Origin: Bdellovibrionales bacterium | Lineage (GTDB): Bacteria > Bdellovibrionota > Bdellovibrionia > Bdellovibrionales > JAEYZS01 | Assembly: GCA_031374125.1 (NCBI GenBank) | Contig: JANMFM010000253.1 | Span: 1-43,052, forward strand | Length of the DNA: 43,052 bases | Direction: 5' to 3' | Shown here: one piece after another, positions 20,445-43,052 of the stretch | How positions within the stretch are numbered: the first letter of the stretch is position 1 | How the letters are laid out: every line of letters begins with the position of its first letter | The notes under the pieces: generated by a model | The model's input: only the letters and a program-made list of their open reading frames with translations | Databases searched by the model: none | What the model was told of the DNA's origin: nothing | Program-made: the position numbers and the translations under genes

Positions 20445-20476
20445 TTGAATTTTTAATCATCACTCATGACCTTGCT

Positions 20477-20514
20477 CAGAGATAAAGCCGACACAACTTT
20501 ATCTCTGGCATTTT
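20477..20514 (+). terminator. Candidate intrinsic terminator after flgE
   Basis: CAGAGATAAAG-N9-CTTTATCTCTG 11-bp stem followed by GCATTTT (short U tract). Confidence 0.5.
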
Positions 20515-20548
20515 CGTGGATCTATTTGGCCAGCGGGCGGAGCATTGA

Positions 20549-21019: not shown

Positions 21020-21040
21020 ATGAACTGAATTAGAGGGTTT

Positions 21041-21571
21041 ATGAAAATCGGTTTAATAGCACTGACCTTGTTACTAGCAAATTCAGCTTTAGCGGGCAGT
21101 TGTGAAAGTGCGGGGATTTCCTACGGAAAAGATCCAGAATGGTCATTCACGCATGCTTCTTACACTAACGTGCGAAAGATATCTGAAGCTCAAAAAGGTG
21201 GATGTAACTTCAATGCAAAAGCAAAATGCGTGAATATGAAAACTCGTGTTTCCGCTTTGAGCTGTGCGATCATTTTACTTGATGGTGAATACGAAACAGA
21301 CTACGCACTCACTGCGCTTTTAATAAAAAACAAAGCGAGCAGTGATGAATTGAATTTGTGTCAGTACAAACATAAAGTAGTAGAAGGAATGTTCTTCGCC
21401 ACTAGAGCGATGAGTGATAGTGATTCTAAAGATAAAAATCTAAAACAACTATCAGATAAACTGTATTTACTAAGTTCTGAGACAGGCTATAATGAAAGAT
21501 GTTTGTATGCTTCAAAAGATTCTAAAAACCCTGGATCGCAAGGATCACTAGGGGTAGAAGCTAATAAATGA
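21041..21571 (+). CDS. Exported Cys-containing hypothetical protein
   Basis: MKIGLIALTLLLANSALA signal peptide, RBS AGAGGG, six Cys; no family recognised. Confidence 0.7.
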   Translation: MKIGLIALTLLLANSALAGSCESAGISYGKDPEWSFTHASYTNVRKISEAQKGGCNFNAKAKCVNMKTRVSALSCAIILLDGEYETDYALTALLIKNKASSDELNLCQYKHKVVEGMFFATRAMSDSDSKDKNLKQLSDKLYLLSSETGYNERCLYASKDSKNPGSQGSLGVEANK

Positions 21572-21648
21572 AACCGATCTAGATGAAAAATTCTTCGCAT
21601 AGAAAAAGACGATGTCAAAATTTTTGATTCTTAAAAGAGTGAATTCAG

Positions 21649-22842
21649 TTAATTGCATTGAATAGATAATTTTTGGCCATTGATATTGAATGTGTAGCCT
21701 TGAGTATTTCTAATGCCTTGAGAAAGAGGAATTCTCGCGTACTGAAGATCGACAATCAATCTAAAGTACTGATCCCCTCTCATTGTGACAATTTGCGCAG
21801 GAACATGGGTAGCCAGCTTACAGTTCATTGTTCCTGGAAGAAAATAGGATTGAAAATCTTTTGGCTGTAGTTCAGGGACCTTCACATCTTCAGCCTGAGT
21901 CACGGCGAGATATTCAGAGAAGCTCAGCACGAACTCACCATCTGCACGGTGGAGTTGCGCTGAAAAGGAATTATAAGCCTTAGTGAGTTCCGAGGCTAGA
22001 TAATCCTTTACGGTAGCCGGTGAACAGTCTACTTTCCCTTTAATGTATGGGGTATCTAAACAAGTCATGGTCGTTGCAGCAATTACTGTTTGAAATTGTT
22101 GATCGCTCTCAATGGAGTAACTTTTTAAAACATCAATGTAAGACCGATCATTAAAATTTTTAAGTTTCATTTTAGAGAAAATTTCTAGAGCATCGGAGGG
22201 CAATCCTCCTTGTAGAATAGCTACGGCCTCATTATTCGTATTGAAAATGAGGCTTCCGGAATCACCATCTTCAAAATGACAATCTGCAAGCGAAATGGTT
22301 TTGGGTTTGGAGGTAAAAAAACTACCTGCGGCAATAGAATTTTGCTTTGCTTTGCAAGCTACTTTTTTTAATTGCGAAGAGTTATCAGAAAAATTTAATT
22401 TTGATTTATAGAAATAATAGGATTCCTCATTTTTAAATGAGGATCTCTTAAAATTAATAGGTGGGGTATCGATTGGTTTTTTAAGTTTAATGATTGCCAC
22501 ATCTGGCTTATTTAAATCATTTTTATCGTACGCTGTGAATACGATTTCTTTACATTCAGCGACGGTATTGCCAAATTTAAAATAAACTTCCCCTTCACAA
22601 TTTTTTGATTCTAAATATCTTTCAACACAGTGAGAGTTTGTCATTACCGTGTTGGCATCAACCACGGAGGCCTGGCAGAACTCATCACCGAAAATTCCTG
22701 TAGAAAGAACGGTACCTAATCCTGCAGGACAAGAGCTATCCAGACAAATCACTTTATGAGCAAAAGCATTTTCTAAAACTCTATTGGATTGAGCTGCGGA
22801 AGCTGAAGACCAAAATACTAGAATTGAAAAAACAATTTTCAT
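21649..22842 (-). CDS. Exported trypsin-like (S1) serine protease
   Basis: Triad motifs TNSHC, PDVAI, GDSGS; signal peptide. Confidence 0.85.
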   Translation of the reverse strand: MKIVFSILVFWSSASAAQSNRVLENAFAHKVICLDSSCPAGLGTVLSTGIFGDEFCQASVVDANTVMTNSHCVERYLESKNCEGEVYFKFGNTVAECKEIVFTAYDKNDLNKPDVAIIKLKKPIDTPPINFKRSSFKNEESYYFYKSKLNFSDNSSQLKKVACKAKQNSIAAGSFFTSKPKTISLADCHFEDGDSGSLIFNTNNEAVAILQGGLPSDALEIFSKMKLKNFNDRSYIDVLKSYSIESDQQFQTVIAATTMTCLDTPYIKGKVDCSPATVKDYLASELTKAYNSFSAQLHRADGEFVLSFSEYLAVTQAEDVKVPELQPKDFQSYFLPGTMNCKLATHVPAQIVTMRGDQYFRLIVDLQYARIPLSQGIRNTQGYTFNINGQKLSIQCN

Positions 22843-22865
22843 GAATATCTATTCCTTCTCACGCA

Positions 22866-24047
22866 TTAAAACTTCATTGCATTTTGGATAGCTTTGATTC
22901 TTGATTCAAGGCCTGGGTAATTTCTAAAAGATTCTTTGTCTTGGGGGTCAATTTCTTGGTAAGCCACTTTGTGAATTTTAATAAGAGCAGAAATTAGTGG
23001 TTTTGCTGAATAGCCAGCTCTATTTAAAATTTTTGCGCCATTCACATCTGCGGTCAACTCAACATTAGGCATATTGTCAGCCACTTGATGCATGATCATT
23101 TCACCAGTGCCGTTATTCAGAGTTTCTTGAAAGTAAGGAAGAGTTTGATCCGTCATTAGCCAGTGAAGTTCTTCATTACCAAGTTTTACAAAATGAATTA
23201 TAGCAGCCTTAGCTAGATAGCCAAATGTTTTTATGCTATCTCCATTAACTCCATGACCCATTTCATGAGCAATCGCCGCCCTCAGTTCATTATCGTCTAA
23301 CAGTTCATAAAGTGGTTGATGAACGAATATACTACATACGGTATTGAAGCTGTTCATAATTTCCGAGGGAATTGCATAAATTTTAAAGCAATTTGCCATC
23401 TCTTTATCTAGGGAGGCACCACGGATATCATTCAACAATCTGTTGAGCCTAGCTTGTGGAGCTTTTGGTGCCACAACTTTACCGGTTCTAAATGCGCTAG
23501 TTTCAACTAACATCTGCGTAGCAATTTCATAGATTGGATTTAATTTTACTTTTTCATCAACGACAGATTTTTGTTGAGAATCCCAAAAGGCAAATAAAAG
23601 TTTTTCCTGAGCTATTTTGAGAGGAGTCGGAGCGTAGCTCAAATCATCAAAAAGATTTGGATTCTTCGCATACCAATATTCAGTTGTAGTCTTATATACA
23701 GATCTAACATGAGGAGTAGCTTGGCGATACGATTCCCAAAAATTTGCATTGGCTTGGCGTCCAATTTTTTTATCAAATATTTTATAACCTTTTATCATTT
23801 CAGGACGAATCGTATTGGTGAAGTAATCCAGCATGATCAATCCACCCTCTTTTGCTTGTTCCGTTAAAACCTTAGTTTGCGCCGCCAAAGCTTTGCAAAA
23901 CTCAGGGTCCAAATCTAGTGGACATGCTTTAAGAGCATCAGAATCAAAGGATCTCTCTTGGAGATTTGAAGACTCATTGCTGCCAGCATAAACCTGGCAA
24001 GTTAATGAAAAAGCCATAAGGAATAGGAAATATTTATTTTGCCCCAC
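22866..24047 (-). CDS. Exported M48-family zinc metallopeptidase
   Basis: DDNELRAAIAHEMGH (HExxH), ELTADxxG, YPGLESRI; signal peptide. Confidence 0.85.
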   Translation of the reverse strand: MGQNKYFLFLMAFSLTCQVYAGSNESSNLQERSFDSDALKACPLDLDPEFCKALAAQTKVLTEQAKEGGLIMLDYFTNTIRPEMIKGYKIFDKKIGRQANANFWESYRQATPHVRSVYKTTTEYWYAKNPNLFDDLSYAPTPLKIAQEKLLFAFWDSQQKSVVDEKVKLNPIYEIATQMLVETSAFRTGKVVAPKAPQARLNRLLNDIRGASLDKEMANCFKIYAIPSEIMNSFNTVCSIFVHQPLYELLDDNELRAAIAHEMGHGVNGDSIKTFGYLAKAAIIHFVKLGNEELHWLMTDQTLPYFQETLNNGTGEMIMHQVADNMPNVELTADVNGAKILNRAGYSAKPLISALIKIHKVAYQEIDPQDKESFRNYPGLESRIKAIQNAMKF

Positions 24048-30597: not shown

Positions 30598-31497
30598 TTA
30601 TTCTAGATCATAAGTGTAAGATTGGTATCTCACATTCTTGGTGACACTTTTAACAATAATAATTCCGGCTATGATCATAATGAAGCAGAGAATTTGTCCC
30701 ATCGAGAAGTATTCGGCGAAGAATCCAAGCTGTACATCTGGCTCCCTAAAGAACTCGATGATAAATCTCGCGATTCCGTAGAAAATCAGGAACCAACCAG
30801 CGATGACACCTGTGCGTTTCCACTCGATTTTTACTTTTTTAGGAGATTTGCCATTTTTTGATTGTTCAGCAATCGCAGTTTCTAGAATCGGAGCAAAACC
30901 TTTTTTCTGTTCCCACTTTTGAATCACATGGCATAGGAAAAATACGATTAGGCCCTCACCCAATGCTTGGTAGAGTTGTGATGGATGTCTTGGCATCGGC
31001 CCGCCTTCAGGAAAGATCACGCCCCATGGAACGTCAGTAAATCTTCCGTAAAGTTCTCCGTTGATAAAGTTTCCAAGTCTTCCAAAGAAAATCCCAATGG
31101 CAGCACCGATGACAACGTTATCGACGATATGATAAAACTGAATCTTATATTTTCGGCAGAAGAAAATAACCGCTACGACATAACCAAGAAGTGCTCCATG
31201 GAAAGAAAGCCCGCCTTGCCAAACGGCAAATACTTCTGATAGGTGATTCATGTAGTACATTGGATTATAAACCGCGACATATACGAGTCTTGCACCGATA
31301 ATCATGCCGATCATGATATAAGTGATAAGAGCTTGGTTGCCTTCCGAATTTAAAATGTTTAAGCCGCGCTTATGGCGTCTCATCAAAATTAGGTAGCCCA
31401 CAAAATAACCAACAAGGTACATTAATCCGTACCATCTGATTTGAAGTGGACCTAAATGAGCAAGAACGGGATCGATGTTGTGAATATAATGTGTCAT
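30598..31497 (-). CDS. lgt: Prolipoprotein diacylglyceryl transferase (canonical)
   Basis: IRWYGLMY, GGLSFHG, GRLGNFINGELYG, RHPSQLY, IEFFREPD. Confidence 0.95.
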   Translation of the reverse strand: MTHYIHNIDPVLAHLGPLQIRWYGLMYLVGYFVGYLILMRRHKRGLNILNSEGNQALITYIMIGMIIGARLVYVAVYNPMYYMNHLSEVFAVWQGGLSFHGALLGYVVAVIFFCRKYKIQFYHIVDNVVIGAAIGIFFGRLGNFINGELYGRFTDVPWGVIFPEGGPMPRHPSQLYQALGEGLIVFFLCHVIQKWEQKKGFAPILETAIAEQSKNGKSPKKVKIEWKRTGVIAGWFLIFYGIARFIIEFFREPDVQLGFFAEYFSMGQILCFIMIIAGIIIVKSVTKNVRYQSYTYDLE

Positions 31498-31516
31498 TCG
31501 TACATTGCACTAGAAT

Positions 31517-32047
31517 TTAAGCGACTTGTCCACTCTCTTTTGGCTCTTCTTTCCTGAAGCTCAGGAAAAATAGAATAATGATTCCGCACACAATAGCAGA
31601 ATCAGCAATATTGAATGCGGGCCATGAATAAAGATGTCTAAAATGGAAATCAAGGAAATCGATAACGTATTTTACTCTTAAGCGATCGATATAGTTTCCA
31701 AGCGCACCACCAAAAACCAAACTCAGAGCAAGAACTTGAATTCTATCGTTTGCTTTTACAGATTTTAAAAAATAAATAATAATTCCCATGGCGATTGGAG
31801 GAATAAGAAGAAAAAAAGTTTCCCTAAAAGCCTCAGGGCTTCTTGCCATAAATCCAAAGGCTGCTCCTGGATTTTGCACATAGGTGAAGTTAAAATAATT
31901 CTCAATCACGGTTACGCTTTCGCCTAAGTAAAACTTAGATTGAACGTAGATCTTTGTGACCTGATCCATTGCTACTAAAAGCGCCGTTGTCGTTAATAGA
32001 TAAACCAATTTTATTTTTGTGTCTGTTTTCATGGTCAGTAAACTCAT
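31517..32047 (-). CDS. lspA: Lipoprotein signal peptidase II
   Basis: DQVTK, NPGAAFG, GGALGNYIDR, VIDF, PAFNIAD. Confidence 0.95.
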   Translation of the reverse strand: MSLLTMKTDTKIKLVYLLTTTALLVAMDQVTKIYVQSKFYLGESVTVIENYFNFTYVQNPGAAFGFMARSPEAFRETFFLLIPPIAMGIIIYFLKSVKANDRIQVLALSLVFGGALGNYIDRLRVKYVIDFLDFHFRHLYSWPAFNIADSAIVCGIIILFFLSFRKEEPKESGQVA

Positions 32048-34869
32048 ATCAGTGCCTCAACGCATTTTGGACAAATGCCTGGATGTTTAATAGATGATTT
32101 TAGATCGGTATTGTATGTCCAGCATCTCACGCACTTCTCTCCCTCAGCTTTTTTTGCTTCGATGTGGAGTTTGCCTTTTTTAAGATGCACTTGAGAAACA
32201 ATGAAAAATTCTAAAAGACTGTCTTTTAAAAGTTCTAAGACTTTCAATTCTTCACCTTCAGCTGTGATGATCAGCTGAGCCTCAAGGCCAGATCCAATCA
32301 CTTTATTTTTTCTGAGCTCTTCTAAGTTTTTCAGTGCTTCAGTTCTGATCGCTTGGAAAGTTTCAAAAGTTTTGATCACTTCAGGATTTACCCAAGTTTT
32401 ATTTGGTGTTGGGAATTTTTCTAAGAACACCGACGCTTTTTCTTTTCCCAGAGTGTGAGCATAGGTTTCTTCAGCCAAGAATGAAGCAATTGGTGCCAGC
32501 ATTTTTGCTAGGCTCGTAGTGATTTCATAAAGAGCCGTTTGCGCAGATCTTCTCAAATGACCATCGGTTTTTCTGACATAGAGTCTATCTTTTAAAATAT
32601 CCAAGTAGAATGCAGAAAGATCCACGGTCACAAAGTTATTGATCAAATGATAGATCTTGTAGAATTCATACTTCTCGTAACCTTCGGTTACGTTTTCAAT
32701 AAGCGTATTGAGCTTTGCAAGCGCCCATTGATCAAGAGAGGTTAAATCTTTATAGGGAAGAGCATCTTTTTTGTGATCATAATCGGAAAGATTTCCAAGA
32801 AGGAATCGGATTGTGTTTCTAAGGCGTCTGTAAGTTTCTGTGATTCTTGCGATACCTTCTGGATTGCAAGACAAATCATTGGCGTAATCTTCATGTGTGG
32901 CCCAGAGTCTAAGAATGTCAGATCCGCTATTCTTGATCACATCCATTGGATCGACAACGTTTCCTAAGCTCTTACTCATTTTTTGACCTTTAGAAAACAT
33001 CACGAATCCGTGAGTGAGGACAGTCTTAAATGGAGCAATTCCTTCGGCAGCGACAGAGGCGAGGAGAGAAGTGTGGAACCAACCTCTGTGTTGATCCGAA
33101 CCTTCGAGATACAAATCTGCCGGTTGGGTGAGACCCGTACGTTTTTTCTGAACCGCGGCCCAGCAAACTCCACTATCAAACCAAACATCAAGAATATCTC
33201 TACCTTTTTCGAATTCAGCTTTTCCGCACTTTTCACATTTATGAGATCCCGCAAAAACTTTAATGTCTGTATCAAAGTAACCTTCGATGCCTGCACCACC
33301 TTTAGTATCAATTCGGTTAGCCTCAGTGCGATCCATGCTATCTGCAATTCTCATCATAACATCTTCTTTTGCAAGAGGAGTCTGGCAAGCTTTGCAGTAC
33401 AATACTGGAATTGGAACACCCCAAAGTCTTTGACGAGAAACACACCAGTCTGGGCGATTCTCGATCATTGCAGAAATTCTTCTTTCGCCCCAAGAAGGAA
33501 CCCAGTTCACCTCTTTGATGGCGTTCAAAGATTTTTCGCGGATGGTGTGACCAGAATCTTTTAGATCCATTTTCAAGAACCACTGGGGAGTCGCTCTGTA
33601 AATCAACGGAGCTTTCGATCTCCAGCAATGTGGATAGCTATGTTCGATTTCACTGTGATGAAGGAGGTGCCCGGTTTCTTTGATAAGATCGAGAACAATT
33701 TTATTTCCTTCTTTGAGAACGTGTTTCCCTTGAAGGAATGCCGGAGCATCTAAATTATAAAAACCACCATCATCTACCGGAGATAAAATCGGAAGATGAT
33801 ATCTCATACCAACGTTGTAATCGTCGACACCGTGACCTGGAGCTGTATGCACGAGTCCTGTACCAGCTTCAAGTGTTACGTGATTTCCGAGAAGAATTTT
33901 TCCAGTTCTTTCGATGAAGGGATGCTTGTACTCAAGGTTTTCTAGATCTATGCCTTTTAAAGTTTTTGCAGGAGATAAAGATTTAAGAGTGATGCCGGTG
34001 TCTTTTTCGAAAGCTTCTTTAAGACCTCGAGCTACGACTACATAATCAGATTGATCATTGACTTGGGTTTCGTAAATTTCGTATTCAAACTCTGGGTGAA
34101 CAGTAACTGCTAAATTTGCAGGAAGAGTCCAAGGAGTTGTTGTCCAGATGACGAGATTTGTTTTTTTATGGGAATCGGGTACACCAAGATGTTTTAATAT
34201 TTCAAATTTTACGTAGATCGCTTGGCTCTTATAATTTTTGTATTCGACTTCGGCTTCAGCAAGCGCAGTTTTTAGAGCCCAACACCAGTAGACCGGTTTT
34301 GTACCGTGATAGAAGGCGCCAGTTTTCAGAATGTTTGCGAGAACTCGGACTTCTTCAGCTTCGTATTCTGGTTGTAGAGTCATGTATGGATTTTCCCAAT
34401 CCGCCATCACACCAATTCTCTTGAATTCTTCTCTCTGTATGCTCATCCACTTCGTAGCTTCTTCACGGCAAAGATTTCTAAACTGCTTATCAGTGAGATC
34501 GTTCCTTTTATCACCAAGAGCCTTTGTAACGACCAATTCAATTGGCAGACCATGGCAATCCCAGCCCGGAATGAATGGCGCTTTGTAGCCGCTCATATTT
34601 TTGTATTTGATCACGGTGTCTTTTAAAATTTTATTGAGAGCATGGCCAACGTGAATATGGCCGTTGGCGTACGGAGGACCATCGGGCATCGAGAAAGAAC
34701 CTTTCTCTGCATTGGAGTTCAGCATCTGGTTGTAGATATCTTGAGAGCGCCAGAATTCAATAAACTCAGGTTCCCTTTGATTGAGATTTCCCTTCATAGG
34801 GAAATCCGTTTTTGGCAAGTTGAGGGTGTCTTTATAGTTCACTGGCTCTGTGACTGGTTCTTTACTCAT
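32044..34869 (-). CDS. ileS: Isoleucine-tRNA ligase (type 1)
   Basis: DGPPYANG-HIHVGH, GWDCHGLP, WTTTPWT, EGSDQHRGWF, KMSKS, C-terminal zinc finger. Confidence 0.98.
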   Translation of the reverse strand: MSKEPVTEPVNYKDTLNLPKTDFPMKGNLNQREPEFIEFWRSQDIYNQMLNSNAEKGSFSMPDGPPYANGHIHVGHALNKILKDTVIKYKNMSGYKAPFIPGWDCHGLPIELVVTKALGDKRNDLTDKQFRNLCREEATKWMSIQREEFKRIGVMADWENPYMTLQPEYEAEEVRVLANILKTGAFYHGTKPVYWCWALKTALAEAEVEYKNYKSQAIYVKFEILKHLGVPDSHKKTNLVIWTTTPWTLPANLAVTVHPEFEYEIYETQVNDQSDYVVVARGLKEAFEKDTGITLKSLSPAKTLKGIDLENLEYKHPFIERTGKILLGNHVTLEAGTGLVHTAPGHGVDDYNVGMRYHLPILSPVDDGGFYNLDAPAFLQGKHVLKEGNKIVLDLIKETGHLLHHSEIEHSYPHCWRSKAPLIYRATPQWFLKMDLKDSGHTIREKSLNAIKEVNWVPSWGERRISAMIENRPDWCVSRQRLWGVPIPVLYCKACQTPLAKEDVMMRIADSMDRTEANRIDTKGGAGIEGYFDTDIKVFAGSHKCEKCGKAEFEKGRDILDVWFDSGVCWAAVQKKRTGLTQPADLYLEGSDQHRGWFHTSLLASVAAEGIAPFKTVLTHGFVMFSKGQKMSKSLGNVVDPMDVIKNSGSDILRLWATHEDYANDLSCNPEGIARITETYRRLRNTIRFLLGNLSDYDHKKDALPYKDLTSLDQWALAKLNTLIENVTEGYEKYEFYKIYHLINNFVTVDLSAFYLDILKDRLYVRKTDGHLRRSAQTALYEITTSLAKMLAPIASFLAEETYAHTLGKEKASVFLEKFPTPNKTWVNPEVIKTFETFQAIRTEALKNLEELRKNKVIGSGLEAQLIITAEGEELKVLELLKDSLLEFFIVSQVHLKKGKLHIEAKKAEGEKCVRCWTYNTDLKSSIKHPGICPKCVEALI

Positions 34870-34903
34870 GTTATCCTTGGTCGTATGCTTTAATGTAGGA
34901 ACT

Positions 34904-34933
34904 AATCTATTGAAATTAGAGCTTTAAAGTCAA
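34904..34933 (-). promoter_or_regulatory. Candidate sigma70 promoter of ileS-lspA-lgt-lgt
   Basis: Minus strand TTGACT-N18-TAGATT. Confidence 0.45.
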
Positions 34934-34949
34934 TGATCGGGACAGGGTT

Positions 34950-35561
34950 CTATGAGCGATTTGGGAAAATGGTCTTAAGTTTGTCATAACCGAGGGTTAT
35001 AAGCATCCTAACGACATCTGCATCTGATTCCATATTGAGTTCAGCCTTCACGGTATCGATGATGTTTTGAGATTTTTGATCTACAGATACACCAGTTTGA
35101 CGTCTTTCTGAGACTTTGAACTCAATGCTTCGCTCATCATAACGAGGTGGCGTAGGTGACTTCATAGGAGCTTCTTGCTCAAACTCAAACGCACGACTCA
35201 TATCAAAGTTTTGCGTGAAATCTGGAGCATCCGGTAAATTTTGTGGAACGGAGTTTTGTACGGGCTTAAGTGGTACTTGTGCTTTCAAGGTTTCTTTCTG
35301 TTTCTCAAATTGATTGAGTTCTGTTGCTAATGACTGAAGTTGATTTTTGAAATCTTTTGAACTGACGGGAGCAATGTTTTCTAGACGACCATCCCCTAAA
35401 GAGGAAACACCATTTCTTCTCGCTTGAAGATAAAGTGCGACAAGAGTTTCTTTTGTTGTCGCCATGTTTTTAACATACTCAGGCTGTGACTGTACCCAAA
35501 CGTACGCTTTCGCAACGTCTTCTCTAGTGTAAGCCTGTGGTGGTATATGATTGCTTGCCAT
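34950..35561 (-). CDS. Hypothetical cytoplasmic protein
   Basis: 203-aa ORF with ordered-looking termini (PPQAYTRE..., ESDADVVRMLITLGY) joined by a Pro/Gln-rich linker. Confidence 0.7.
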   Translation of the reverse strand: MASNHIPPQAYTREDVAKAYVWVQSQPEYVKNMATTKETLVALYLQARRNGVSSLGDGRLENIAPVSSKDFKNQLQSLATELNQFEKQKETLKAQVPLKPVQNSVPQNLPDAPDFTQNFDMSRAFEFEQEAPMKSPTPPRYDERSIEFKVSERRQTGVSVDQKSQNIIDTVKAELNMESDADVVRMLITLGYDKLKTIFPNRS

Positions 35562-35729
35562 GAAGGGTCAGAAACTAGCTGGATTTCTAAGACTCATCAA
35601 GATTTAAGTTCATGAGACCGCGCAATATTTTTTGATGTTAAAAATAAAAATTATTTTGCTCTGAAGTGAGACGAAAACAACAAACAGCGGACTAACAGAT
35701 TTATCCACAAAAGGTCGGGTACCTTTTGT

Positions 35730-37196
35730 CTACGTTGTGCTGATATAATCTCTTGGATTGATTCCGTATTTCTCGATTTTTCTCAAGAGAGTCTTCTTCG
35801 GAATATTTGCATGAAGAGCAGTTTGATTGATTCTACCTTTAAAGGTTTTCAAAGCTTTAATGATAAATTCTTTTTCGAAGAGCTCTTTGTGCTTGCCAAA
35901 ATCCAATTCACCATTCACTTCAACGCCAGCAACTTGAATTTCTTCTTCGCCTGCAACTGGAGCAATGGCTTCACCAGATTCTTCAGAGCTCTGAGCTAAT
36001 TTCTGAACATCTTCAAAAGAAATTCCGAGCGACTTTAATACTTTTTCAGGCAATGAATGAAGCGTGATCTTGTTTGAAGTTTCAATTACGAATGCATATT
36101 CCATGACGTTTTCTAATTCACGAATGTTTCCTGGCCAGCCGTACTTTTTAAAGCACGCCATAACCTCAGGAGAAATTCCAAGCATCTTTTTGCCATGAGC
36201 TTTATTGAATTTTGCTAAGAACATATTGAGTAAAGTTTCGATATCGTCTTTGCGATCTCTGAGGGGTGGTAAGAACATCGGGATGACGCTCAAACGGTAA
36301 AATAAATCTTCTCTGAAGGTTCCTTCTTCGATCATTTTTTCGAGAGGTTTGTTGGTAGCTGCAATGATTCTAACATTGGCTTCCAATTCTCTGTTCGCAC
36401 CAACTGGAGTGAACACTTTTTCTTGCAATACTCTCAAAAGTTTTGCTTGCATCAAAAGTGGCATATCTCCGATTTCATCTAGGAAGAGAGTTCCGCCTTC
36501 AGCGTATTGAAATTTACCGATTTTTCTTTGGTCAGCGCCTGTGAAAGAGCCTTTTTCGTGACCAAACAATTCAGATTCAAATAAATTTTCAGGAATTGCA
36601 GAGCAGTTGATTGCGACGAACTTTTGATCTTTTCTTGCAGAGTTAAAATGGATCGCTCTAGCCACGAGCTCTTTACCTGTTCCTGATTCACCACGGATCA
36701 AAACTGAAGTATCTACGTTTGAAAGTCTTGAAATAAGGCTAAACACCTTTTTCATTTCGATGTTTTTACCAACAAATTTTCTATCAGATTCAATAAGGAT
36801 AGGAGATGAGGCTGCTGCTGACGAAATCATGTCGTGAGCCTCGATCGATCTTTCTACGAGCTGGATCAACTCATCGCCTTTAACGGGCTTTGAAAGATAG
36901 TTGTAAGCGCCTTCTTTAACAGCAACAACAGCATCGTTGATGTTTGCGTAGGCAGTCATGATCAATACAATTGTTTGTGGGGAGAGTTCTTTGATTTTTT
37001 TAAGAGTTTCAAGACCGTTCAGGCGAGGCATATCTACGTCAAGTATAACGAGGTCGTATTGCTGAGATTCCATCTTTTCAATAGCATGCATACCGTCTAC
37101 AGCATCATCGACTGTGAATCTGCCTGAGTTCCTCAGTGTAGAGCTGACCGCTAATCTTAAACCAGCGTCGTCATCCGCTACTAATACCTTCAACAT
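35730..37196 (-). CDS. NtrC-family sigma54-dependent response regulator (REC-AAA+-HTH)
   Basis: VLVADDD, LVILDVDMP, SKP; GESGTGKE, GSFTGA, WPGNIRELEN; C-terminal HTH. RBS GGAGGG favours ATG 37196. Confidence 0.95.
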   Translation of the reverse strand: MLKVLVADDDAGLRLAVSSTLRNSGRFTVDDAVDGMHAIEKMESQQYDLVILDVDMPRLNGLETLKKIKELSPQTIVLIMTAYANINDAVVAVKEGAYNYLSKPVKGDELIQLVERSIEAHDMISSAAASSPILIESDRKFVGKNIEMKKVFSLISRLSNVDTSVLIRGESGTGKELVARAIHFNSARKDQKFVAINCSAIPENLFESELFGHEKGSFTGADQRKIGKFQYAEGGTLFLDEIGDMPLLMQAKLLRVLQEKVFTPVGANRELEANVRIIAATNKPLEKMIEEGTFREDLFYRLSVIPMFLPPLRDRKDDIETLLNMFLAKFNKAHGKKMLGISPEVMACFKKYGWPGNIRELENVMEYAFVIETSNKITLHSLPEKVLKSLGISFEDVQKLAQSSEESGEAIAPVAGEEEIQVAGVEVNGELDFGKHKELFEKEFIIKALKTFKGRINQTALHANIPKKTLLRKIEKYGINPRDYISTT

Positions 37197-37216
37197 TTTC
37201 CCTCCGAACATCGGTA

Positions 37217-39088
37217 TCATAATCTTCCCCCTAATGATCCATCACTGTTCCCACTTTGATGCTGGCCACTTTGATCCATTGGTAGATTCACCGTAAAGGT
37301 TGAACCTTGCTGAGGAAGACTCTCAACAGTTATCTGTCCTTTATGCAGCTCTACAAAATATTTTGCAAGGTACAAACCTAGGCCTGACCCCTTAATAGGT
37401 GAATTTTTCACATGTTTAGTACGATAGAACTTTGTAAATATGTGTCTAATTTCGTTCTCCGTGATGCCAATTCCTTGGTCAGCGACTTGAACGATAATTT
37501 GCCCTTCATCTTCTTCGGACGTCACAAGGATTCTGGAGTTCGTTGGCGAGTACTTAATGGCATTTTCAATGAGGTTCGAGAACACTTGCTTCATCAGATC
37601 AGCATCGATTTTTACTGAGAAAAGAGTATCGAGCTCAGGAATGATCTCGATGTTTTTTTGTTGAGCAAGGTATTCATATTTTTTGATTGTATCTTCCAAG
37701 ATGCGATTGATGTCGCGAGATTGAAGATTCAATTTAATTTTTTGCGATTCCACTCGGGATAAATCAAGAATAGAGCTGATGAATTCAGTGAGTTCTTCCG
37801 CAGATTTTCTGATTGTTTGAACCGCAGTCTTTTGCTCGGGTTCAAAATTTTCGGAATTCGCGAGAGCTATGTCGGCCATACCTTGAATTCTCGCAAGTGG
37901 GGTCTTGAGGTCATGAGACATCATGCTGAGGAAGTTGTTCTTAAGCTCTTCAACCTGGGTGAGGAGTTTGTTTTTTTCTCTAAGTTCCCAGAATTTTTTG
38001 TTTTCACGGATTAATCTGTAGGGAATAAAGAAATAGTAGCAAACAAATACAGCGATGAGGGGTTGAGCCATTCCAATTGCTAAGCCCGAGAATGTGAAGA
38101 GTAAGCTTGAAAAAATAAAATAGCTAACAACTAAGCCAAATATTGCGGTAATACCCATTGCTGGAGAAAGCATAAAAACCGCGAAGGTAGCAACTATAGA
38201 AAACAAAAACGTAACTGCTTTGTTTAAGAGAATTTGAGTCTTAATAATTCCATTATTTTCTAAGAAAGTTTTAATTACATGTGCATGAGCTTCAAGCTTA
38301 GTCATTCCGAGTAGATCGCGAGTGTACGGTGTTTTAATATAATAAGCTGGCGTAAATTTATCGTCATAGCCAATTAATACTATTCTATCTGTAAATGTGT
38401 TTTTCTCAAAAGAACCATTTTTAATTTCAGAGAGACTGTTTGCTATAAATGTGTGTGGTCTTTGATAATTAATATTTGTTTGTAGAGCTTCTCTAAATTC
38501 AAAAGTTCCGCGATACTTATGCGGGTCTCTTATTCCGTTATAAAAAGATGCTATATAAGGTTGAAGTAATGTCTGTCCTTGATAGTAAATCAAAGCGCGC
38601 CTAGATACATCATCACCGGCAAAGTTATTTTTGTCGTAAGTAATAACTCCGGGCACACTTTTGATTTTGTCATAAGGTTTTGGCAAAACAAGTTGGCTCT
38701 CTTGGCCAGCAATCACAACATCATCATAAATAACTAAAAAATTTTTGAATTTGGTTGTTAAGGCTGCAAACTCTGCTTTTTGATCCGCAGTACCTTGAAT
38801 GTTTTGAATTGGAAATGTGTAAACAACATAGTTCGGATTTTCCGCTAATAATAAAGTTAGAAATTTATTATGAGCAGCTAAGTTGTTGTCTTGGTTTTGA
38901 ATTGTGTTTTGATCAATAGCGATTGTTTTGATAAGGTCTGAGCCTGAACTAAAAGGTCGCAGTCGAAATCTTGCGTCATATAAAAGTGATTCGACATAAT
39001 GAAAATCGAATGAGCTAACAATTAGAGCTATTCCTAATGCCAAAGCTAAACTCAATATTGAAATGGCAAAGTTTCGCTTTTGGGACAT
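37217..39088 (-). CDS. CHASE2-domain sensor histidine kinase
   Basis: N-terminal TM; CHASE2-like DDVSRR and RIVLIG...KTPY...MTKLEAHAH; three TMs; SHDLKTPL; NLIENAIKY, DQGIG, GSGLGL. Confidence 0.88.
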   Translation of the reverse strand: MSQKRNFAISILSLALALGIALIVSSFDFHYVESLLYDARFRLRPFSSGSDLIKTIAIDQNTIQNQDNNLAAHNKFLTLLLAENPNYVVYTFPIQNIQGTADQKAEFAALTTKFKNFLVIYDDVVIAGQESQLVLPKPYDKIKSVPGVITYDKNNFAGDDVSRRALIYYQGQTLLQPYIASFYNGIRDPHKYRGTFEFREALQTNINYQRPHTFIANSLSEIKNGSFEKNTFTDRIVLIGYDDKFTPAYYIKTPYTRDLLGMTKLEAHAHVIKTFLENNGIIKTQILLNKAVTFLFSIVATFAVFMLSPAMGITAIFGLVVSYFIFSSLLFTFSGLAIGMAQPLIAVFVCYYFFIPYRLIRENKKFWELREKNKLLTQVEELKNNFLSMMSHDLKTPLARIQGMADIALANSENFEPEQKTAVQTIRKSAEELTEFISSILDLSRVESQKIKLNLQSRDINRILEDTIKKYEYLAQQKNIEIIPELDTLFSVKIDADLMKQVFSNLIENAIKYSPTNSRILVTSEEDEGQIIVQVADQGIGITENEIRHIFTKFYRTKHVKNSPIKGSGLGLYLAKYFVELHKGQITVESLPQQGSTFTVNLPMDQSGQHQSGNSDGSLGGRL

Positions 39089-39120
39089 GTTACCTCTACA
39101 TAAAGTTTTATTAGAAACGA

Positions 39121-39234
39121 TTAATAAAGATCCTGTGGACCTGATCTCACAATTGCAGTTTGTGTTTTATTAAAAGAGACACTCTTAACTTTTCTTTTTA
39201 ACTTCGTAATCATAGCTCTAATCTCCTTAATCAT
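39121..39234 (-). CDS. Unannotated 37-aa peptide, candidate signal/RiPP precursor
   Basis: MIKEIRAMITKLKRKVKSVSFNKTQTAIVRSGPQDLY. AGGAG lies 6 nt before ATG 39234; a second in-frame ATG (39213) has its own AAGGAG; a sigma54 promoter lies just upstream. Confidence 0.7.
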   Translation of the reverse strand: MIKEIRAMITKLKRKVKSVSFNKTQTAIVRSGPQDLY

Positions 39235-39282
39235 TTGAAACTCCTAGGATGAATGATTTTTTTTGATACCAAGACTTACAAT

Positions 39283-39300
39283 TAGCAATAACTCTGCCAA
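39283..39300 (-). promoter_or_regulatory. Sigma54 promoter driving peptide, kinase and regulator
   Basis: Minus strand TTGGCAGAGTTATTGCTA with exact GG-N10-GC spacing and near-consensus -24 and -12 elements. Confidence 0.8.
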
Positions 39301-39425
39301 TCTTGTGGGCCTAATGTTGTCTATGCAATATTAGTAAATTCATATACTTAATGCATCAAGTTATTTATAAGCATATAAAATCAGTGAGAAATTCGGTGCC
39401 CATTTGGGAATGAATAAATAAGTAA

Positions 39426-39440
39426 GTGTCTGACTGACAC
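39426..39440. promoter_or_regulatory. Candidate enhancer palindrome for the peptide promoter
   Basis: GTGTC-TGACT-GACAC, about 125 bp upstream of the -24 element, with AT-rich intervening DNA. Confidence 0.45.
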
Positions 39441-39511
39441 CAAAACATTTATCTTTGAATACTCTCTCCATGGAAAAAATTCAGATTATGTCCATAAAAC
39501 TTACGATTAAT

Positions 39512-41746
39512 TTATATGGATTTAATCTGGATCTTATCAAGGTCTTTTTTACCAAAAACCTGTGCATTTAGGTCCTTAGCGATTTTAAGAATATCTTCGT
39601 TCGAAGATAAGGTGGTGCATAAAAAAGCATTAAATAAATATTTAGCGCCCTTGTCTGTGGTCATTTGAATTACATCAAACCCTGTTTCGTCTTCGTTTTC
39701 AAAAATCATGTCAGTAATAATCGTATACGGTTGTTCATTGAATAAATTGAATGATCCTTTATCCATTTCATATTTAAAATTTTTAAATGATTCGAAAGAA
39801 ATAAAATTCAATTGGTTATCCTTAAATATTTTTTCCCACAGACTTCTCGTTTCGAAAACATCTTCTATGAGAATTATATTTTTCGCAGTATTGATTTCAA
39901 GGGTTCGTAAATTTGACTTCAGTAAGATAATCTTAAAAATTGTTTTGCCAGGAGTAGACGTGACCAGAGTAATATCTCCTCCGGTTTTCAATAAGGCCTC
40001 TTTCGCTTGAGATAATCCAATTCCAGTTCCAGATTTTTTATCGTATGTGAATCCTAAATCAAAAATATTCTTTTGGATCTCTGAGGGAATGCCTTTGCCT
40101 GTGTCTTCAATGAATATTTGAACACTATCTGGCTCATCAACAACTTCGATATTAATTTTCCCTATAAAACTCATTGCTTCGATGGAGTTGTTAAGAATAT
40201 TTGTTAAGGCTCTTTCAATTTCAGTTTGATCTACTGGAATTAATATATTTTGACAATCATGCTTCAGATGAATGTGAATATTAGAGTGTGTTTGCTTGTA
40301 AGTATTTACTAATTCATTGAGGGTTGAAATTATATCTACAGAAATAGGTTCGTGGACTGTTTCAAACGCTCCAGATTTAAATTTTTTAAGCAATGAGTCT
40401 GCGATATTGTTTATACGAGTAATGGTTTTATCCAAAAGTTTTTGAGCGTCAGGGTTCATTTCAGTGCGAGAAACCATTTTAACTGTTTCGAGAGCCATTA
40501 TTGGGGATTTAATATCGTGAGCTAATTGTGTTGCGATTCGAAAGCCGAGGTCGGCTTTTGCTGATTTTGCATTGATCTTCACTTTATTGATAGCTTTTTC
40601 TTTCTCTTCTTTTGCCAGGAAGAAGTTTTTATCATTTTGTCTCGCAAGGCGGAGAAAAGCGAATGGTATTGTAAGATATTGAAGTAAGAACAGCATCAAT
40701 AATGGATGAGTAGTATCAAGCTGCCAGCTAGTAATTCCAAAAATTAGTAATGGCAATAATATTATAAAAAAGAGTTGTCCAAAGCTAAATAAAAACAGAT
40801 TTTTAGCAGGTAATCTGCTGGCTATGCAAATAAAGAAAAATAAATTAAAAAATGTCCAAATATAGTTATAAGTGACAGGTGGGACTTTTGGATTGTCTTT
40901 TTGAATTAGAGTATCGAATCCGTTTGCGATAGCCTCGTTGACCATCATAGCAAAAACAGAGTGATCATATGGAATTTTTCTATAATCAAACAGATCATCT
41001 TTGGCATTTAAACTTACAATTACAATACTATCTTTGAAAAATGTAGGAGAGATTAGCGCAACATCATCAGCATTATTAACATTTATAGACTCATAACTAT
41101 CTTTTTTGGAGAATCTAGCTTTTACTGCCTCTCGACCATTTTGAAAAAAAGTTCCTTCATACTTTGGGCTTCCAATCACAAGTGTTTGAATAGATTCATT
41201 TGGATTATAATCCACTAGTATTCTTCGCACGACTCCATCCATTGCGCCAGAGACAGTCTCTGTTCCAATTCCTGGGGAGGTTATTCGTAGCTTCGATAGA
41301 GTGGGGTGTTTGTAGACTAAGCTTTGGAATAATGGAAAAGTATTTGGTATATGAAAGAAAACATTTTTATATTTTTTCGTGAATTCTACAAAGTCTGCGA
41401 TGGGATAATCTTTTTCATTGGTGAGTAGATAAAGCGGGTCGTAGGCATATGCGACAATTTTGGCGCCACTACTTACGGCGCTTTCTATGATTGCTTTGTG
41501 AGTTTTGAGGCTAAAATTATGAAAGTAGAGAGAGCTTTTTGAATTTTTCTCAGTAGGCGTAAGATTTATAAGTTTTATATTAGCGCTAGGCGATGTTCTT
41601 TTGAACACAGTGACATGAAAATCATAAAAGAATGCATCAATGCGTGGAAAATCAAATTTCCAAATAACGGCGGTAAGGGCCAAAGAAATTAAAAGATTTA
41701 TGATAATAAAAAGTATAAGTTTGTTTTTTGAATTAAGGCTAGGCAT
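39512..41746 (-). CDS. Second CHASE2 sensor histidine kinase with C-terminal receiver-like domain
   Basis: DGVVRR CHASE2 motif; TM bundle; AHDIKSP; NILNNSIEA, DTGKG, GTGIGL; receiver-like IILIED...IITDM. Confidence 0.82.
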   Translation of the reverse strand: MPSLNSKNKLILFIIINLLISLALTAVIWKFDFPRIDAFFYDFHVTVFKRTSPSANIKLINLTPTEKNSKSSLYFHNFSLKTHKAIIESAVSSGAKIVAYAYDPLYLLTNEKDYPIADFVEFTKKYKNVFFHIPNTFPLFQSLVYKHPTLSKLRITSPGIGTETVSGAMDGVVRRILVDYNPNESIQTLVIGSPKYEGTFFQNGREAVKARFSKKDSYESINVNNADDVALISPTFFKDSIVIVSLNAKDDLFDYRKIPYDHSVFAMMVNEAIANGFDTLIQKDNPKVPPVTYNYIWTFFNLFFFICIASRLPAKNLFLFSFGQLFFIILLPLLIFGITSWQLDTTHPLLMLFLLQYLTIPFAFLRLARQNDKNFFLAKEEKEKAINKVKINAKSAKADLGFRIATQLAHDIKSPIMALETVKMVSRTEMNPDAQKLLDKTITRINNIADSLLKKFKSGAFETVHEPISVDIISTLNELVNTYKQTHSNIHIHLKHDCQNILIPVDQTEIERALTNILNNSIEAMSFIGKINIEVVDEPDSVQIFIEDTGKGIPSEIQKNIFDLGFTYDKKSGTGIGLSQAKEALLKTGGDITLVTSTPGKTIFKIILLKSNLRTLEINTAKNIILIEDVFETRSLWEKIFKDNQLNFISFESFKNFKYEMDKGSFNLFNEQPYTIITDMIFENEDETGFDVIQMTTDKGAKYLFNAFLCTTLSSNEDILKIAKDLNAQVFGKKDLDKIQIKSI

Positions 41747-41807
41747 ACTTAAAAGTAATATTAAATGGTTAAATTGAAAAGAATTAAATAATAATTGTGG
41801 ATGTCAG

Positions 41808-42926
41808 ATGAACTTATTCGGATTTGAATTGTACCAAAAAGCAGGATCAGCGGAAATCAATTATCATAAAGGCTGGTCTTGGAAGCCATCCAGATTGGAA
41901 TTAATTAAAAATCCCAAGAAATTATTAAATTTTAAAAGCACTATGTATACGTTCTTGCCCCAAAAATTTTCCAAAGGTTATATTCTAATTTTATCTAAAA
42001 AAAACACGGCCGTGGGAAGCTTGATTTCTGAGCTTAAAAAGGCAAAGAAGCCATTCCTTTACCTTAATTGGGAGGAGTTAATAGGTGAGGGTATTGTAGA
42101 ATACAATTCAGCTGAAAAAAAATATTTAATCAAATACAAAAATAGCTCTTTCGATTTATCAAAGGTGAAGTCAATTTATTGCGACTATACTAATATTTCT
42201 GAGGTTTTTCATTTTAAAAGATCTAAGTTTTCCAATAAAGAAAAAGTTTTTTTAAGTAGGTGGATAGAGGCTTTGCAAATACTAGAGTATATTCTCAAAG
42301 AAAAAAAATGGTATCCTGCTAAACCCTCCCAAATGAGATATGAGTCGCAAAATAAATTTGGGGAACTTGTTGTGGCCCAAAAGTTAGGAATAAAAGTTCC
42401 GAAAATGATTTATACAAATGATCCGAGAGAGGCACAGAAATTTTTAAAAAATACTCCTTCTATAATAAAAGAATCAGGACTAAAGTTTTTTGAAGATTCA
42501 AAAGGGAATATTCAGATTTTTAAATCAAAAAAAATTGAATTTAATAATAAGAAAATTTCTGACATCCAATCTTCCCCATGTTTTTTTCAGGAATTTATAA
42601 ATAAAAAATTTGATATTCGATCTACAATTGTAGGAAAAAAAGTCCTAAGTGTAAAAATTCAATCTCAAGATAATAAAAAATCTGCGTCTGATTGGCGAGG
42701 CAATGAACATCTAACACCGATGTCTTCATTTGAACTGCCAGCTGCTTTAGAAAAGAAACTGATCCAGCTTCAAAAAATACTAGGGTTTGAGCTATCTAGC
42801 TTTGATCTTGTCGTCGATGACAAGAATAATTATTTTCTTTTAGAAATGAATCGCCCAGGACAATGGCTATTTATGGAAGCTTTGGCAGGTGTTCCAATTT
42901 CAAAAACCTTAGCTTCTAATCTTTAA
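41808..42926 (+). CDS. MvdC/MvdD-like (RimK superfamily) ATP-grasp peptide maturase
   Basis: NKxxxL..A..LG..VP, FFQEFINKKFDIRSTIVG, IQSQ...DWR and FDL...YFLLEMNRPGQWLFME match graspetide synthetase motifs. Confidence 0.8.
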   Translation: MNLFGFELYQKAGSAEINYHKGWSWKPSRLELIKNPKKLLNFKSTMYTFLPQKFSKGYILILSKKNTAVGSLISELKKAKKPFLYLNWEELIGEGIVEYNSAEKKYLIKYKNSSFDLSKVKSIYCDYTNISEVFHFKRSKFSNKEKVFLSRWIEALQILEYILKEKKWYPAKPSQMRYESQNKFGELVVAQKLGIKVPKMIYTNDPREAQKFLKNTPSIIKESGLKFFEDSKGNIQIFKSKKIEFNNKKISDIQSSPCFFQEFINKKFDIRSTIVGKKVLSVKIQSQDNKKSASDWRGNEHLTPMSSFELPAALEKKLIQLQKILGFELSSFDLVVDDKNNYFLLEMNRPGQWLFMEALAGVPISKTLASNL

Positions 42927-43052
42927 AGATCAGTTGAATAGGTTCCAGTGGGCGCTTTTCGTCTTCTGGGACGTTCATGGCTTTTTGGTCTTCGACTGAG
43001 ATTTCTCTCGCTTCTGTATCTTCCGGTAATTCGAAATCCACTGCGGGTAAGT
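42916..43052 (-). CDS. Acidic C-terminal fragment of a gene entering from beyond the window
   Basis: Open frame ...LPAVDFELPEDTEAREISVEDQKAMNVPEDEKRPLEPIQLIFKD*, convergent with and slightly overlapping the ATP-grasp gene. Confidence 0.45.
   Translation of the reverse strand, partial: LPAVDFELPEDTEAREISVEDQKAMNVPEDEKRPLEPIQLIFKD

Follow-up and report, generated by a model that had tools for sequence, protein, structure and literature searches.

The window analysed here, 43,052 bp long, is the whole of contig C77 of the Bdellovibrionales genome G000, and it contains a gene cluster composed of a small open reading frame (ORF) with the makeup of a precursor peptide, a histidine kinase with a CHASE2 sensor domain (HK1), an NtrC-type sigma54-dependent response regulator, a second CHASE2 kinase (HK2) and an ATP-grasp ligase related to the enzymes that crosslink graspetides. 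We propose, with a probability of roughly one half, that this cluster is a self-activating modified-peptide signalling module of uncultured Bdellovibrionales; the modification, export and sensing of the peptide are what we infer from the sequence. The parts of the proposal differ in strength. The small ORF is very probably a real substrate of the ligase, and autoregulation through sigma54 is probable; that the matured peptide is the ligand of HK1 we favour by a small degree, and the chances of all three holding jointly are about even.

The G000 genome (3.11 Mb in 371 contigs, 98.65% complete) was compared with a set of 61 relatives, in which G000 itself is counted, and with an order-wide set of 384 genomes. 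Its relatives are metagenome-assembled genomes of uncultured Bdellovibrionales and Bdellovibrionota; the window's family is designated f1, and the closest genome, G004, served as the reference for delimiting a variable cassette. Across the order, 30 orthologous HK1 loci were fetched and the region 5' of HK1 was scanned for small ORFs, and in a further genus, g32, 30 loci were scanned for the peptide by a regular expression. A pattern scan for the cluster gave six loci in genome contigs and two in metagenome contigs, one of the latter just 1.4 kb long. For 38000-42900 no RNA data set is on record, and most of that stretch occurs in a single DNA run (X1, 0.98 of the words), which may be its source; expression is not addressed by this. 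The ORFs listed in the original prediction do exist in the window at the coordinates claimed for them.

The candidate precursor peptide and its candidate maturase

The small ORF (39121..39234, minus strand) encodes 37 amino acids; its leader is rich in Lys, its C-terminal core reads S-G-P-Q-D-L-Y, and it was confirmed at the place predicted for it, 32 bp before the start of HK1. Its start codon has AGGAG at a distance of 8 nt upstream; another ATG, at 39213, which would give 30 amino acids, is preceded by AAGGAG. The ORF is unannotated, peptides of this kind match no curated family, and the window's peptide has no entry in a collection of 15 billion proteins. The ORF is conserved: a Lys-rich-leader ORF precedes the HK1/regulator pair in 18 of the 30 orthologous loci. 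In eight of these it follows a Shine-Dalgarno (SD) sequence and has no Cys, every one of the eight coming from a genome with an ATP-grasp ortholog. In the other ten a homologous ORF with the leader K-[HF]-I-K-K carries a single Cys, in a C-x-P or C-P context near the C-terminus, and each of these ORFs lies directly 3' of a radical-SAM/SPASM gene of the 428-aa class. As for the remaining loci, one has a Cys ORF of another kind, resembling a signal peptide and preceded by a strict sigma54 motif, one is too short for reading, and in ten the upstream scan revealed no Lys-leader ORF.

The C-termini of the eight Cys-less peptides are SGPQDLY, SGPQDMY, TSPSEYF, TSPEDIF, SKPHDIT, KKPTDHA, TNPASD and SGLKAD; six of them fit the pattern [S/T/K]-x-P-x-[D/E]-x2, and TNPASD and SGLKAD (from G016 and G013) deviate. 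A leader motif K-x-[IV]-K-K is shared, and the leaders align across the Cys-less and the Cys-containing types. The core codons show synonymous differences between G000 and G002, and likewise between G004 and G001. In the genus g32 a peptide could be read in 25 of the 30 loci, always with Cys as the fifth residue from the C-terminus, while the regular expression found none in loci L111, L112, L116, L117 and L118; these peptides end in C-[IL]-P-x-x, and many of them (those in C-I-P-V-R) have no acidic residue. In the C-x-P forms the Cys stands two residues before Pro, that is, at the very position occupied by Ser, Thr or Lys in the peptides of the ATP-grasp type. The nucleophile at this position matches the type of maturase, and this is the strongest argument for the small ORF being the substrate of the maturase. 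A small ORF of another appearance, with a hydrophobic, signal-peptide-like N-terminus and the C-terminal sequence G-C-V-I-C, was seen in locus L069 (G056), 5' of the HK1 ortholog and behind the strict sigma54 motif TGGCACCCCCTTTGCT.

The ligase gene (41808..42926, plus strand) encodes, according to NCBIfam models and a structure-profile search, a graspetide-type ATP-grasp ligase and candidate macrocyclase. Its predicted divergent position, 61 bp from the start of HK2, was borne out; its predicted MvdC/MvdD-type character agrees with the best model matches, which score far below the curated cut-offs. The best NCBIfam models are TIGR04187 (3.6e-36), MvdD (8e-35) and MvdC (1.5e-30); the four graspetide maturase models as a whole give 3.6e-36 to 2.6e-23, or 83-125 bits against cut-offs of 230-475 (125 against 350 for the best match). 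When a profile was built from seven orthologs, the closest solved structures were AMdnB, CdnC, MdnC, MdnB, an MvdD-like protein and PsnB (4e-43 to 2e-15), and RimK/LysX-type ligases appeared at about 1e-4 only. Relative to the matched model positions, the protein has an N-terminal extension of about 50-100 amino acids. Judged from these comparisons, the ligase is related to graspetide macrocyclases but divergent, and it lies outside every curated family. The small ORF has the corresponding properties of a graspetide precursor, namely a leader, a core that holds donor (Ser/Thr/Lys) and acceptor (Asp/Glu) residues, and a gene beside that of the ligase.

Ligase orthologs occur in nine of the 61 relatives: in G000, in all six other genomes of f1, in one of the five in f8 and in the single genome of f11. 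Order-wide, 11 of the 384 genomes match the ligase at E <= 1e-30, and two of these matches are more distant genes; one of the two, in G397, comes immediately after the gene of a 126-aa repeat precursor and thus belongs to a canonical graspetide cluster. Partial ATP-grasp matches in 14 genomes of the phylum (about 1e-11 to 1e-13) cover the C-terminal half of the model only and were not counted as orthologs. The linkage of an ATP-grasp gene to the small ORF, by which the original prediction can be judged, exists in every readable f1 genome and in one other family; in G003, G004, G005 and G016 the ligase gene and the small ORF are immediate divergent neighbours, about 380-815 bp apart. In G013, two ATP-grasp paralogs are located on contigs C86 and C92 (L017, L018), away from the kinase locus. 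One of them stands directly after a penicillin-binding protein (PBP) gene, in inverted orientation and with no obvious precursor in the 290-bp gap, and the other follows a 287-aa protein without a family match.

The variable cassette and the sensor classes

HK1 (37217..39088, minus strand) contains, according to Pfam, CHASE2 (7.7e-18; 65.4 bits against a cut-off of 26.3; amino acids 21-296), HisKA and HATPase_c, so that its identification as a CHASE2 histidine kinase, like that of the NtrC-type regulator next to it, holds. Hydrophobic segments at about 5-32 and 286-356 flank the CHASE2 domain, as is characteristic of CHASE2 sensor proteins. The protein consists of a variable sensor part (about amino acids 1-358, encoded by 38014..39088, minus strand), which comprises the first transmembrane helix, periplasmic CHASE2 and a transmembrane cluster, and a conserved kinase core with HisKA and HATPase_c (about amino acids 359-623, encoded by 37217..38013, minus strand).

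The junction of these two parts is also the edge of a variable cassette (38014..42895, no strand assigned), which was delimited by nucleotide identity to G004 per 150-nt window. Identity is 0.87-1.00 from 31121 to 38013, including 91-99% over the HK1 core stretch 37264-38013; alignable parts of the cassette, which extends to about 42895, mostly show 0.44-0.63, with lower values in gapped windows; to the right of it, identity is 92% over the stretch 42896-43052, and C163, the contig that carries the locus on, shows 94.7%. The left boundary is at the last transmembrane helix of HK1, and the right one is 30 nt before the stop codon of the ligase. At the protein level, G000 and G004 share 97% in isoleucyl-tRNA synthetase (IleRS), 99% in the regulator and 98% in the HK1 core, against 43% in the HK1 sensor (amino acids 1-358) and 52% in the ligase, and their peptides differ despite the near-identical flanks. 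In the pairs of genomes compared, closeness of the sensor goes with the type of peptide and not with kinship of the genomes: G000 and G002, both with SGPQD-type cores, are 66% identical in the sensor (IleRS 84%), G004 and G001, both with STSP-type cores, 69% (IleRS 75%), and G003 and G005, with KKPTD and SKPHD cores, 57%; sensor identity in the remaining pairs is 29-48%. Maturase, peptide and sensor vary together and the kinase core and regulator are conserved, a pattern typical of pherotypes.

Sensor classes were delineated in a set of HK1 homologs, namely the top 21 of 870 proteins found at E <= 1e-100. In this set, where the kinases P0007-P0016 come from metagenomes, two classes can be told apart among 13 homologs with 76-98% mutual identity of the kinase cores: class A (P0006-P0011), with G000 and G002 among its members, and class B (P0012-P0016, P0018 and the more distant P0021), which includes G004 and G001. 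Without P0021, sensor identity amounts to 61-81% for members of the same class and to 37-45% for members of different ones, and the cores of these 12 proteins are 84-98% identical and intermixed; in four pairs, cores at least 95% identical are joined to sensors with 41-44% identity. In a tree of 16 sequences each class forms one sensor clade with 100% support, and the core tree needs four label changes, which is no better than for shuffled labels. By approximately unbiased (AU) tests, a class A clade is rejected on core data (p = 1.6e-4) and a clade of G000 with G004 is rejected on sensor data (p = 7e-42), values that are to be taken as descriptive because classes A and B were named after the identity matrix had been seen. 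Sensor class follows peptide type, G000 going with G002 and G004 with G001, in all four genomes in which both are known, the peptide type being known for 4 of the 13 class members. The bounded cassette of sensor, peptide and ligase and the incongruence of the sensor classes with the kinase-core tree strengthen the analogy with the agr system on which the original prediction was modelled.

The genus g32 served as a control. Among its kinases, core identity reaches at least 95% in 43 pairs; sensor identity in these is 67-100%, with no class jump, and all 42 such pairs with both peptides read share the last five residues of the peptide. The sensor class jump is special to the window's genus, and fast evolution of the sensor is general.

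The regulator, the sigma54 promoter and a small-RNA candidate

The regulator gene (35730..37220, minus strand) was predicted at 35730-37196; the gene stands and the start does not, 37196 being an in-frame internal Met. It overlaps the HK1 gene by 4 nt and is located directly 3' of HK1 in all 30 orthologous loci; the pair is present in 47 of the 61 relatives (E <= 1e-60), which makes it far commoner than the ligase. Pfam and motif searches revealed a receiver (Response_reg, 9.8e-29), an AAA+ domain (Sigma54_activat, 2.6e-72) with the Walker A sequence GESGTGK at 177 and a GSFTGA loop at 224, and HTH_8 (1.1e-6). The receiver, the AAA+ domain, the GAFTGA-type loop and the Fis-type helix-turn-helix, together with a sigma54 promoter and the rpoN gene, which is present in the G000 genome, are the attributes of an NtrC-family sigma54 two-component system.

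The promoter predicted before the peptide gene is a -24/-12 motif, TGGCAG-N5-TTGCT (TGGCAGagttaTTGCT, 39284..39299, minus strand). It is the sole sigma54 match in the window, where 0.28 are expected and 27 of 100 shuffles give at least one, and is therefore non-significant when taken alone; what bears it out is its conserved position, as the same motif is found at the equivalent place in G002, G004, G001, G005 and G003, with variants in G016 and G013. Upstream of it is a palindrome, GTGTC-N5-GACAC (GTGTCAGTCAGACAC, 39426..39440, 15 bp, no strand assigned), a candidate enhancer (upstream activating sequence). Its distance to the -24 element is 141 bp in G000 (exact copy), 143 bp in G002, 142 bp in G004, 143 bp in G001 (with three mismatches), 143 bp in G005 and 131 bp in G013; it was not found at the equivalent place in G003 and G016, and similar palindromes precede HK1 in other families. 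Just two exact copies exist in the 3.1-Mb genome. The palindrome comes from a pattern scan, the MAFFT alignment of eight promoter regions being too noisy for the definition of binding sites. A hairpin seen here in a terminator scan might have made the palindrome a terminator of HK2; this was rejected, for the sequence itself recurs where there is no HK2 upstream. The conserved sigma54 motif and the palindrome, which hold their spacing within DNA that has diverged in other respects, fit positive autoregulation by the regulator.

The palindrome also occurs before a candidate small RNA, a non-coding stretch of about 120 nt on contig C263 (about 1819-2034, plus strand; loci L124 and L131) with a GC-rich hairpin and a T run at its end. 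The candidate has a second sigma54 motif, TGGCACACACCTTGCT, as its promoter, and 76 bp upstream is GTGTT-N5-GACAC, a copy of the palindrome with one mismatch. It is conserved in all five family genomes searched, and the palindrome in six of six. RNAalifold predicts 23 base pairs, six of them with compensatory changes, and a covariance model built without the promoter finds it in 11 of the 61 relatives. Outside the genomes from which the model was built, five of six weaker matches (G034, G006, a second copy in G005, G046 and G016) have a sigma54 motif 17-20 nt upstream, and the sixth, in G043, has none. Genome-wide, palindrome and sigma54 motif co-occur twice, against 0.076 expected. A search of Rfam gave a chance snoRNA match only (E 0.45). 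Given the shared palindrome, the small RNA may be an output of the same regulator, by analogy with LuxO and Qrr.

Sister loci with PapB-like radical-SAM enzymes

The architecture originally predicted consisted of peptide, CHASE2 kinase, regulator and ATP-grasp ligase. Its first three members do form a core module found across the order, and the ligase is usually absent from that core. In the sister loci L077-L085 (G042, G053, G032, G054, G059, G027, G040 and G018) the core is accompanied by a radical-SAM/SPASM gene, followed by the Cys peptide, the CHASE2 kinase and the regulator. Among the three models scanned, PapB is the best for these radical-SAM proteins (E 1e-50 to 1e-52; about 176 bits against a cut-off of 340). 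A sigma54-like motif precedes the maturase gene by about 50-60 bp (in G042, G053 and G040 as variants read by eye). The neighbours of the radical-SAM loci include a metallo-beta-lactamase-fold protein, alpha/beta hydrolases and proteins without a family, none of which is common to all loci. An alpha/beta hydrolase gene lies directly 5' of the radical-SAM gene in L079 (G032), and in L086 (G012) one lies beside HK1, 5' of a YydG-like radical-SAM gene; these two hydrolases are possible candidates for a leader peptidase, though not common to all loci. In the genus g32, an HK1 ortholog is present in all 44 genomes.

The proposed circuit and its alternatives

We suppose that the module would work as follows. 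The sigma54 promoter would drive the precursor peptide together with HK1 and the NtrC-type regulator. The ATP-grasp ligase would close a small side-chain ring in the C-terminal core, predicted as a lactone between Ser31 and Asp35 of S-G-P-Q-D, an (i, i+4) ring around the proline. The matured peptide would reach the periplasm or the medium and be recognised by the periplasmic/membrane sensor part of HK1, which would phosphorylate the regulator; the latter would bind GTGTC-N5-GACAC about 140 bp upstream and switch on its own sigma54 promoter, giving positive feedback. Peptide core, ligase and sensor would diversify jointly into incompatible "pherotypes". In this scheme the crosslink, the removal of the leader, the export, the binding of ligand to receptor and the identity of the activator that uses the promoter are predicted.

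Several findings weigh against it. The ligase scores under the curated cut-off of every graspetide family, and in the window HK2 separates it from the peptide by 2.5 kb, on the opposite strand. Sensor, peptide and ligase are adjacent, and therefore block recombination alone would make them co-vary; moreover, the classes on which the AU tests were run were named post hoc. The assignment of the promoter to this particular regulator is an inference, because the genome has 14 strong sigma54 activator genes. Furthermore, no exporter, leader peptidase or signal sequence was found at the cluster, and the peptide is hydrophilic; the original prediction had itself warned that the cluster lacks an exporter and a leader peptidase within the window, a caveat that proved correct, and in the 98.65%-complete genome there are no matches of Peptidase_C39 either. 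HK1 can exist without the peptide, because ten of the 30 HK1 loci show none in the scan. The ligase tracks peptide type imperfectly, with 50% identity between G000 and G002, though these share a core, and 61% between G002 and G004. Finally, sensors outpace cores in evolution even in the control genus.

Some of these points are at the same time the grounds for the alternative that survives best, namely that the peptide is modified but does not serve signalling and acts, for example, to inhibit proteases, as an antimicrobial or in predation, that the two-component system regulates it in response to another CHASE2 cue, and that linkage accounts for the co-variation. Protease inhibition is a common activity of graspetides, the ten loci without a detectable peptide suggest that CHASE2 may respond to some other ligand, and the missing exporter, the failure of the ligase to track peptide type cleanly and the fast-evolving sensors of g32 are all in keeping with such a function. 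Less easily accommodated are the position of the cassette boundary at the junction of sensor and kinase, the recurrence of the class swap in four pairs with near-identical cores, and the behaviour of the close pairs in g32, in which 42 of 42 share the last five peptide residues and the sensors are 67-100% identical; besides, in every locus of the family the sigma54 promoter is followed by the peptide gene at the head of the kinase operon. We consider a non-signalling peptide possible, though rather unlikely.

It is quite improbable that the small ORF encodes an unmodified regulatory protein, acting on HK1 or the regulator in the cell or at the membrane, and that the ATP-grasp ligase has its substrate elsewhere. 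The peptide has no signal sequence; the leader motif is common to loci with unrelated maturases, which hints at a partner other than the maturase, and in G013 the ligase genes and the kinase are on different contigs. Against this, Cys is found only with radical-SAM enzymes and Ser/Thr/Lys...Asp/Glu only with ATP-grasp enzymes (8/8, 10/10 and 25/25), the ligase falls within the variable cassette, and its closest solved relatives are all peptide macrocyclases. Hardly credible is a chance or unexpressed ORF behind a sigma54 promoter that merely drives the kinase-regulator operon: in its favour are the shortness of the ORF, which lacks annotation and has no entry in the protein collection, the non-significance of the sigma54 motif when judged by the window alone, and family f5, in which such a motif comes directly before HK1 with no ORF of this kind; yet the SD sequence, the shared leader and the maturase-matched core are kept in 18 of the 30 loci and in 25 of the 30 in g32 despite strong divergence of the nucleotide sequence.

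The signalling module, which we prefer to these alternatives, could be extended to the whole order. The loci would then represent Gram-negative pheromone circuits with one scaffold of leader and receptor, interchangeable macrocyclases, a small ring around a C-terminal proline, at least two pherotypes in the window's genus, and a LuxO-like sigma54 activator that acts on its own operon and on a Qrr-like sigma54-dependent small RNA. ATP-grasp enzymes would make an ester or amide and radical-SAM enzymes a thioether, and the ring would be the first defined class of CHASE2 ligands. In this broad form the proposal is unlikely.

Neighbouring genes and other features of the window

HK2 (39512..41746, minus strand), an optional component of the cassette, has CHASE2 (1.2e-9; 38.6 bits against a cut-off of 26.3) and HATPase_c according to Pfam. 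It had been taken for a hybrid kinase: it is a CHASE2 kinase, and the hybrid label was not confirmed, as there is no Pfam receiver match in the last 135 amino acids. This C-terminal extension is receiver-like. A profile of four orthologous HK2 C-termini matches receiver domains alone, at a non-significant E of 0.29-0.85, and, read by eye, Asp, Thr and Lys are kept at receiver-like places. Both G000 and G002 possess HK2, G004 retains a remnant of 63 amino acids, and G003, G005 and G016 lack it; homologs adjoin the module in G042, where the gene is divergent from it, and in G013.

The order lspA-ileS-orf203-regulator-HK1-(small ORF)-ligase-PBP is kept in f1 and in G016, which belongs to another family. 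Beyond the ligase, a convergent gene of a class A penicillin-binding protein runs off the contig end. On the other side, the regulator is followed by a gene for a 203-aa protein (34950..35561, minus strand), conserved at this place in several families of the order and without a Pfam or NCBIfam match. According to tblastn, it adjoins the regulator in G004, G002, G003, G005, G016, G013 and G001 as well, and ORFs with a similar N-terminus stand beside the regulator in G040, G012 and G032. A hairpin, read by eye, is located at about 35707-35728, between this gene and the stop codon of the regulator.

Elsewhere, the window contains a flagellar block (7174-21600, plus strand) with FliF (9390-11042), a FliI-type ATPase (12874-14196), FliK (15558-17387) and FlgE (19134-20444). 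A second gene with a sigma54-activator domain is at about 7174-8130, preceded by a gene for a 959-aa TPR protein. Two adjacent peptidase genes, one of the trypsin-like and one of the M48 type, are located at 21649-24047 (minus strand), more than 15 kb from the cluster and with no link to the peptide.

Relation to known systems

The proposed module is of a known kind, a peptide pheromone with a two-component system and pherotypes; what would be new are the enzyme, the receptor, the regulator and the phylum. One close parallel in organisation is comQXPA of Bacillus: its polymorphic block takes in maturase, peptide and the sensing portion of the kinase, and leaves out kinase core and regulator, which are conserved. 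Like the cluster described here, comQXPA combines a maturase, a small precursor, a membrane histidine kinase and a response regulator, with a matching variable block, and its gene order, maturase-peptide-kinase-regulator, is that of the radical-SAM loci. It differs in having an isoprenyl transferase in place of the ATP-grasp or radical-SAM enzyme, and it lacks the CHASE2 sensor and sigma54 activator of the present cluster, which belongs to Gram-negative Bdellovibrionota; common families are limited to generic kinase and receiver domains.

The staphylococcal agr system is based on a cyclic-peptide autoinducer with positive feedback, its hypervariable region is bounded inside the kinase gene, and its groups are incongruent with the species tree. 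The boundary inside the kinase and the discrete groups are shared by AgrBDCA and the cluster in the window, as would be the five-residue ring, predicted in our case. Unlike the latter, agr has an AgrB-type peptidase, a thiolactone, the polytopic kinase AgrC and a LytTR regulator. Pfam and NCBIfam scans of the cluster proteins revealed no agr families, with the search for AgrB confined to the cluster and not extended to the wider genome, and the peptide has no Cys. In the autoinduction of nisin through NisRK, a histidine kinase responds to a modified ribosomal peptide by turning on the peptide's own cluster, as proposed here; the chemistry, the receptor and the class of regulator are different, and our cluster has no immunity or transporter genes.

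As for the maturases, the graspetide clusters (microviridin MdnA/B/C, chryseoviridin CdnC, plesiocin PsnB) contain the nearest solved relatives of our ligase and share with the small ORF a C-terminal core with Ser/Thr/Lys and Asp/Glu after a leader. The cluster in the window departs from them in the scores below cut-offs, the N-terminal extension, the single acidic residue of the core, from which one small ring is predicted, and the linkage to a two-component system; no graspetide with a signalling role was found in the literature searched. PapB is an enzyme that forms thioethers between Cys and Asp, and in clostridia a connection between ranthipeptides and quorum sensing has been reported. 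The sister loci resemble PapB-type ranthipeptide and SCIFF maturation systems in that PapB is the best model and in having one Cys, often with Asp a few residues later; they differ by scores below the cut-off, by a single Cys in place of repeats and by many cores without an acidic residue.

On the regulatory side, the Vibrio pathway from LuxO through sigma54 to Qrr also has membrane kinases that feed an NtrC-type sigma54 activator, and the sigma54-dependent small-RNA candidate with the same palindrome adds to this likeness. LuxO is one of many models that fit the regulator comparably well (4.7e-109; 365 bits against a cut-off of 800). Unlike the Vibrio pathway, the cluster has no LuxU, and the signals and receptors are unrelated. 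Our literature search agreed with the original prediction in finding no prior description of an ATP-grasp or radical-SAM peptide combined with a CHASE2 kinase, a listing in a graspetide survey being possible; nor was any description of peptide quorum sensing in Bdellovibrio found.

Significance

Systems of peptide quorum sensing that have their own maturase and receptor are, to our knowledge, considered typical of Gram-positive bacteria. If our interpretation is true, Gram-negative predators would have peptide quorum sensing, and this would offer a handle on their sensing of density or kin. CHASE2 is, as far as we know, a widespread sensor domain with almost no known ligands, and a genetically paired peptide would be a direct route to one. 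Two unrelated crosslinking chemistries directed to the same residue position of homologous peptides would constitute a natural experiment in enzyme exchange, and the two sensor classes on near-identical backgrounds would provide matched pairs for the study of specificity. Cultured Bdellovibrio possess the radical-SAM version (a kinase ortholog occurs in 44 of 44 genomes of the genus g32), which would make the system genetically tractable.

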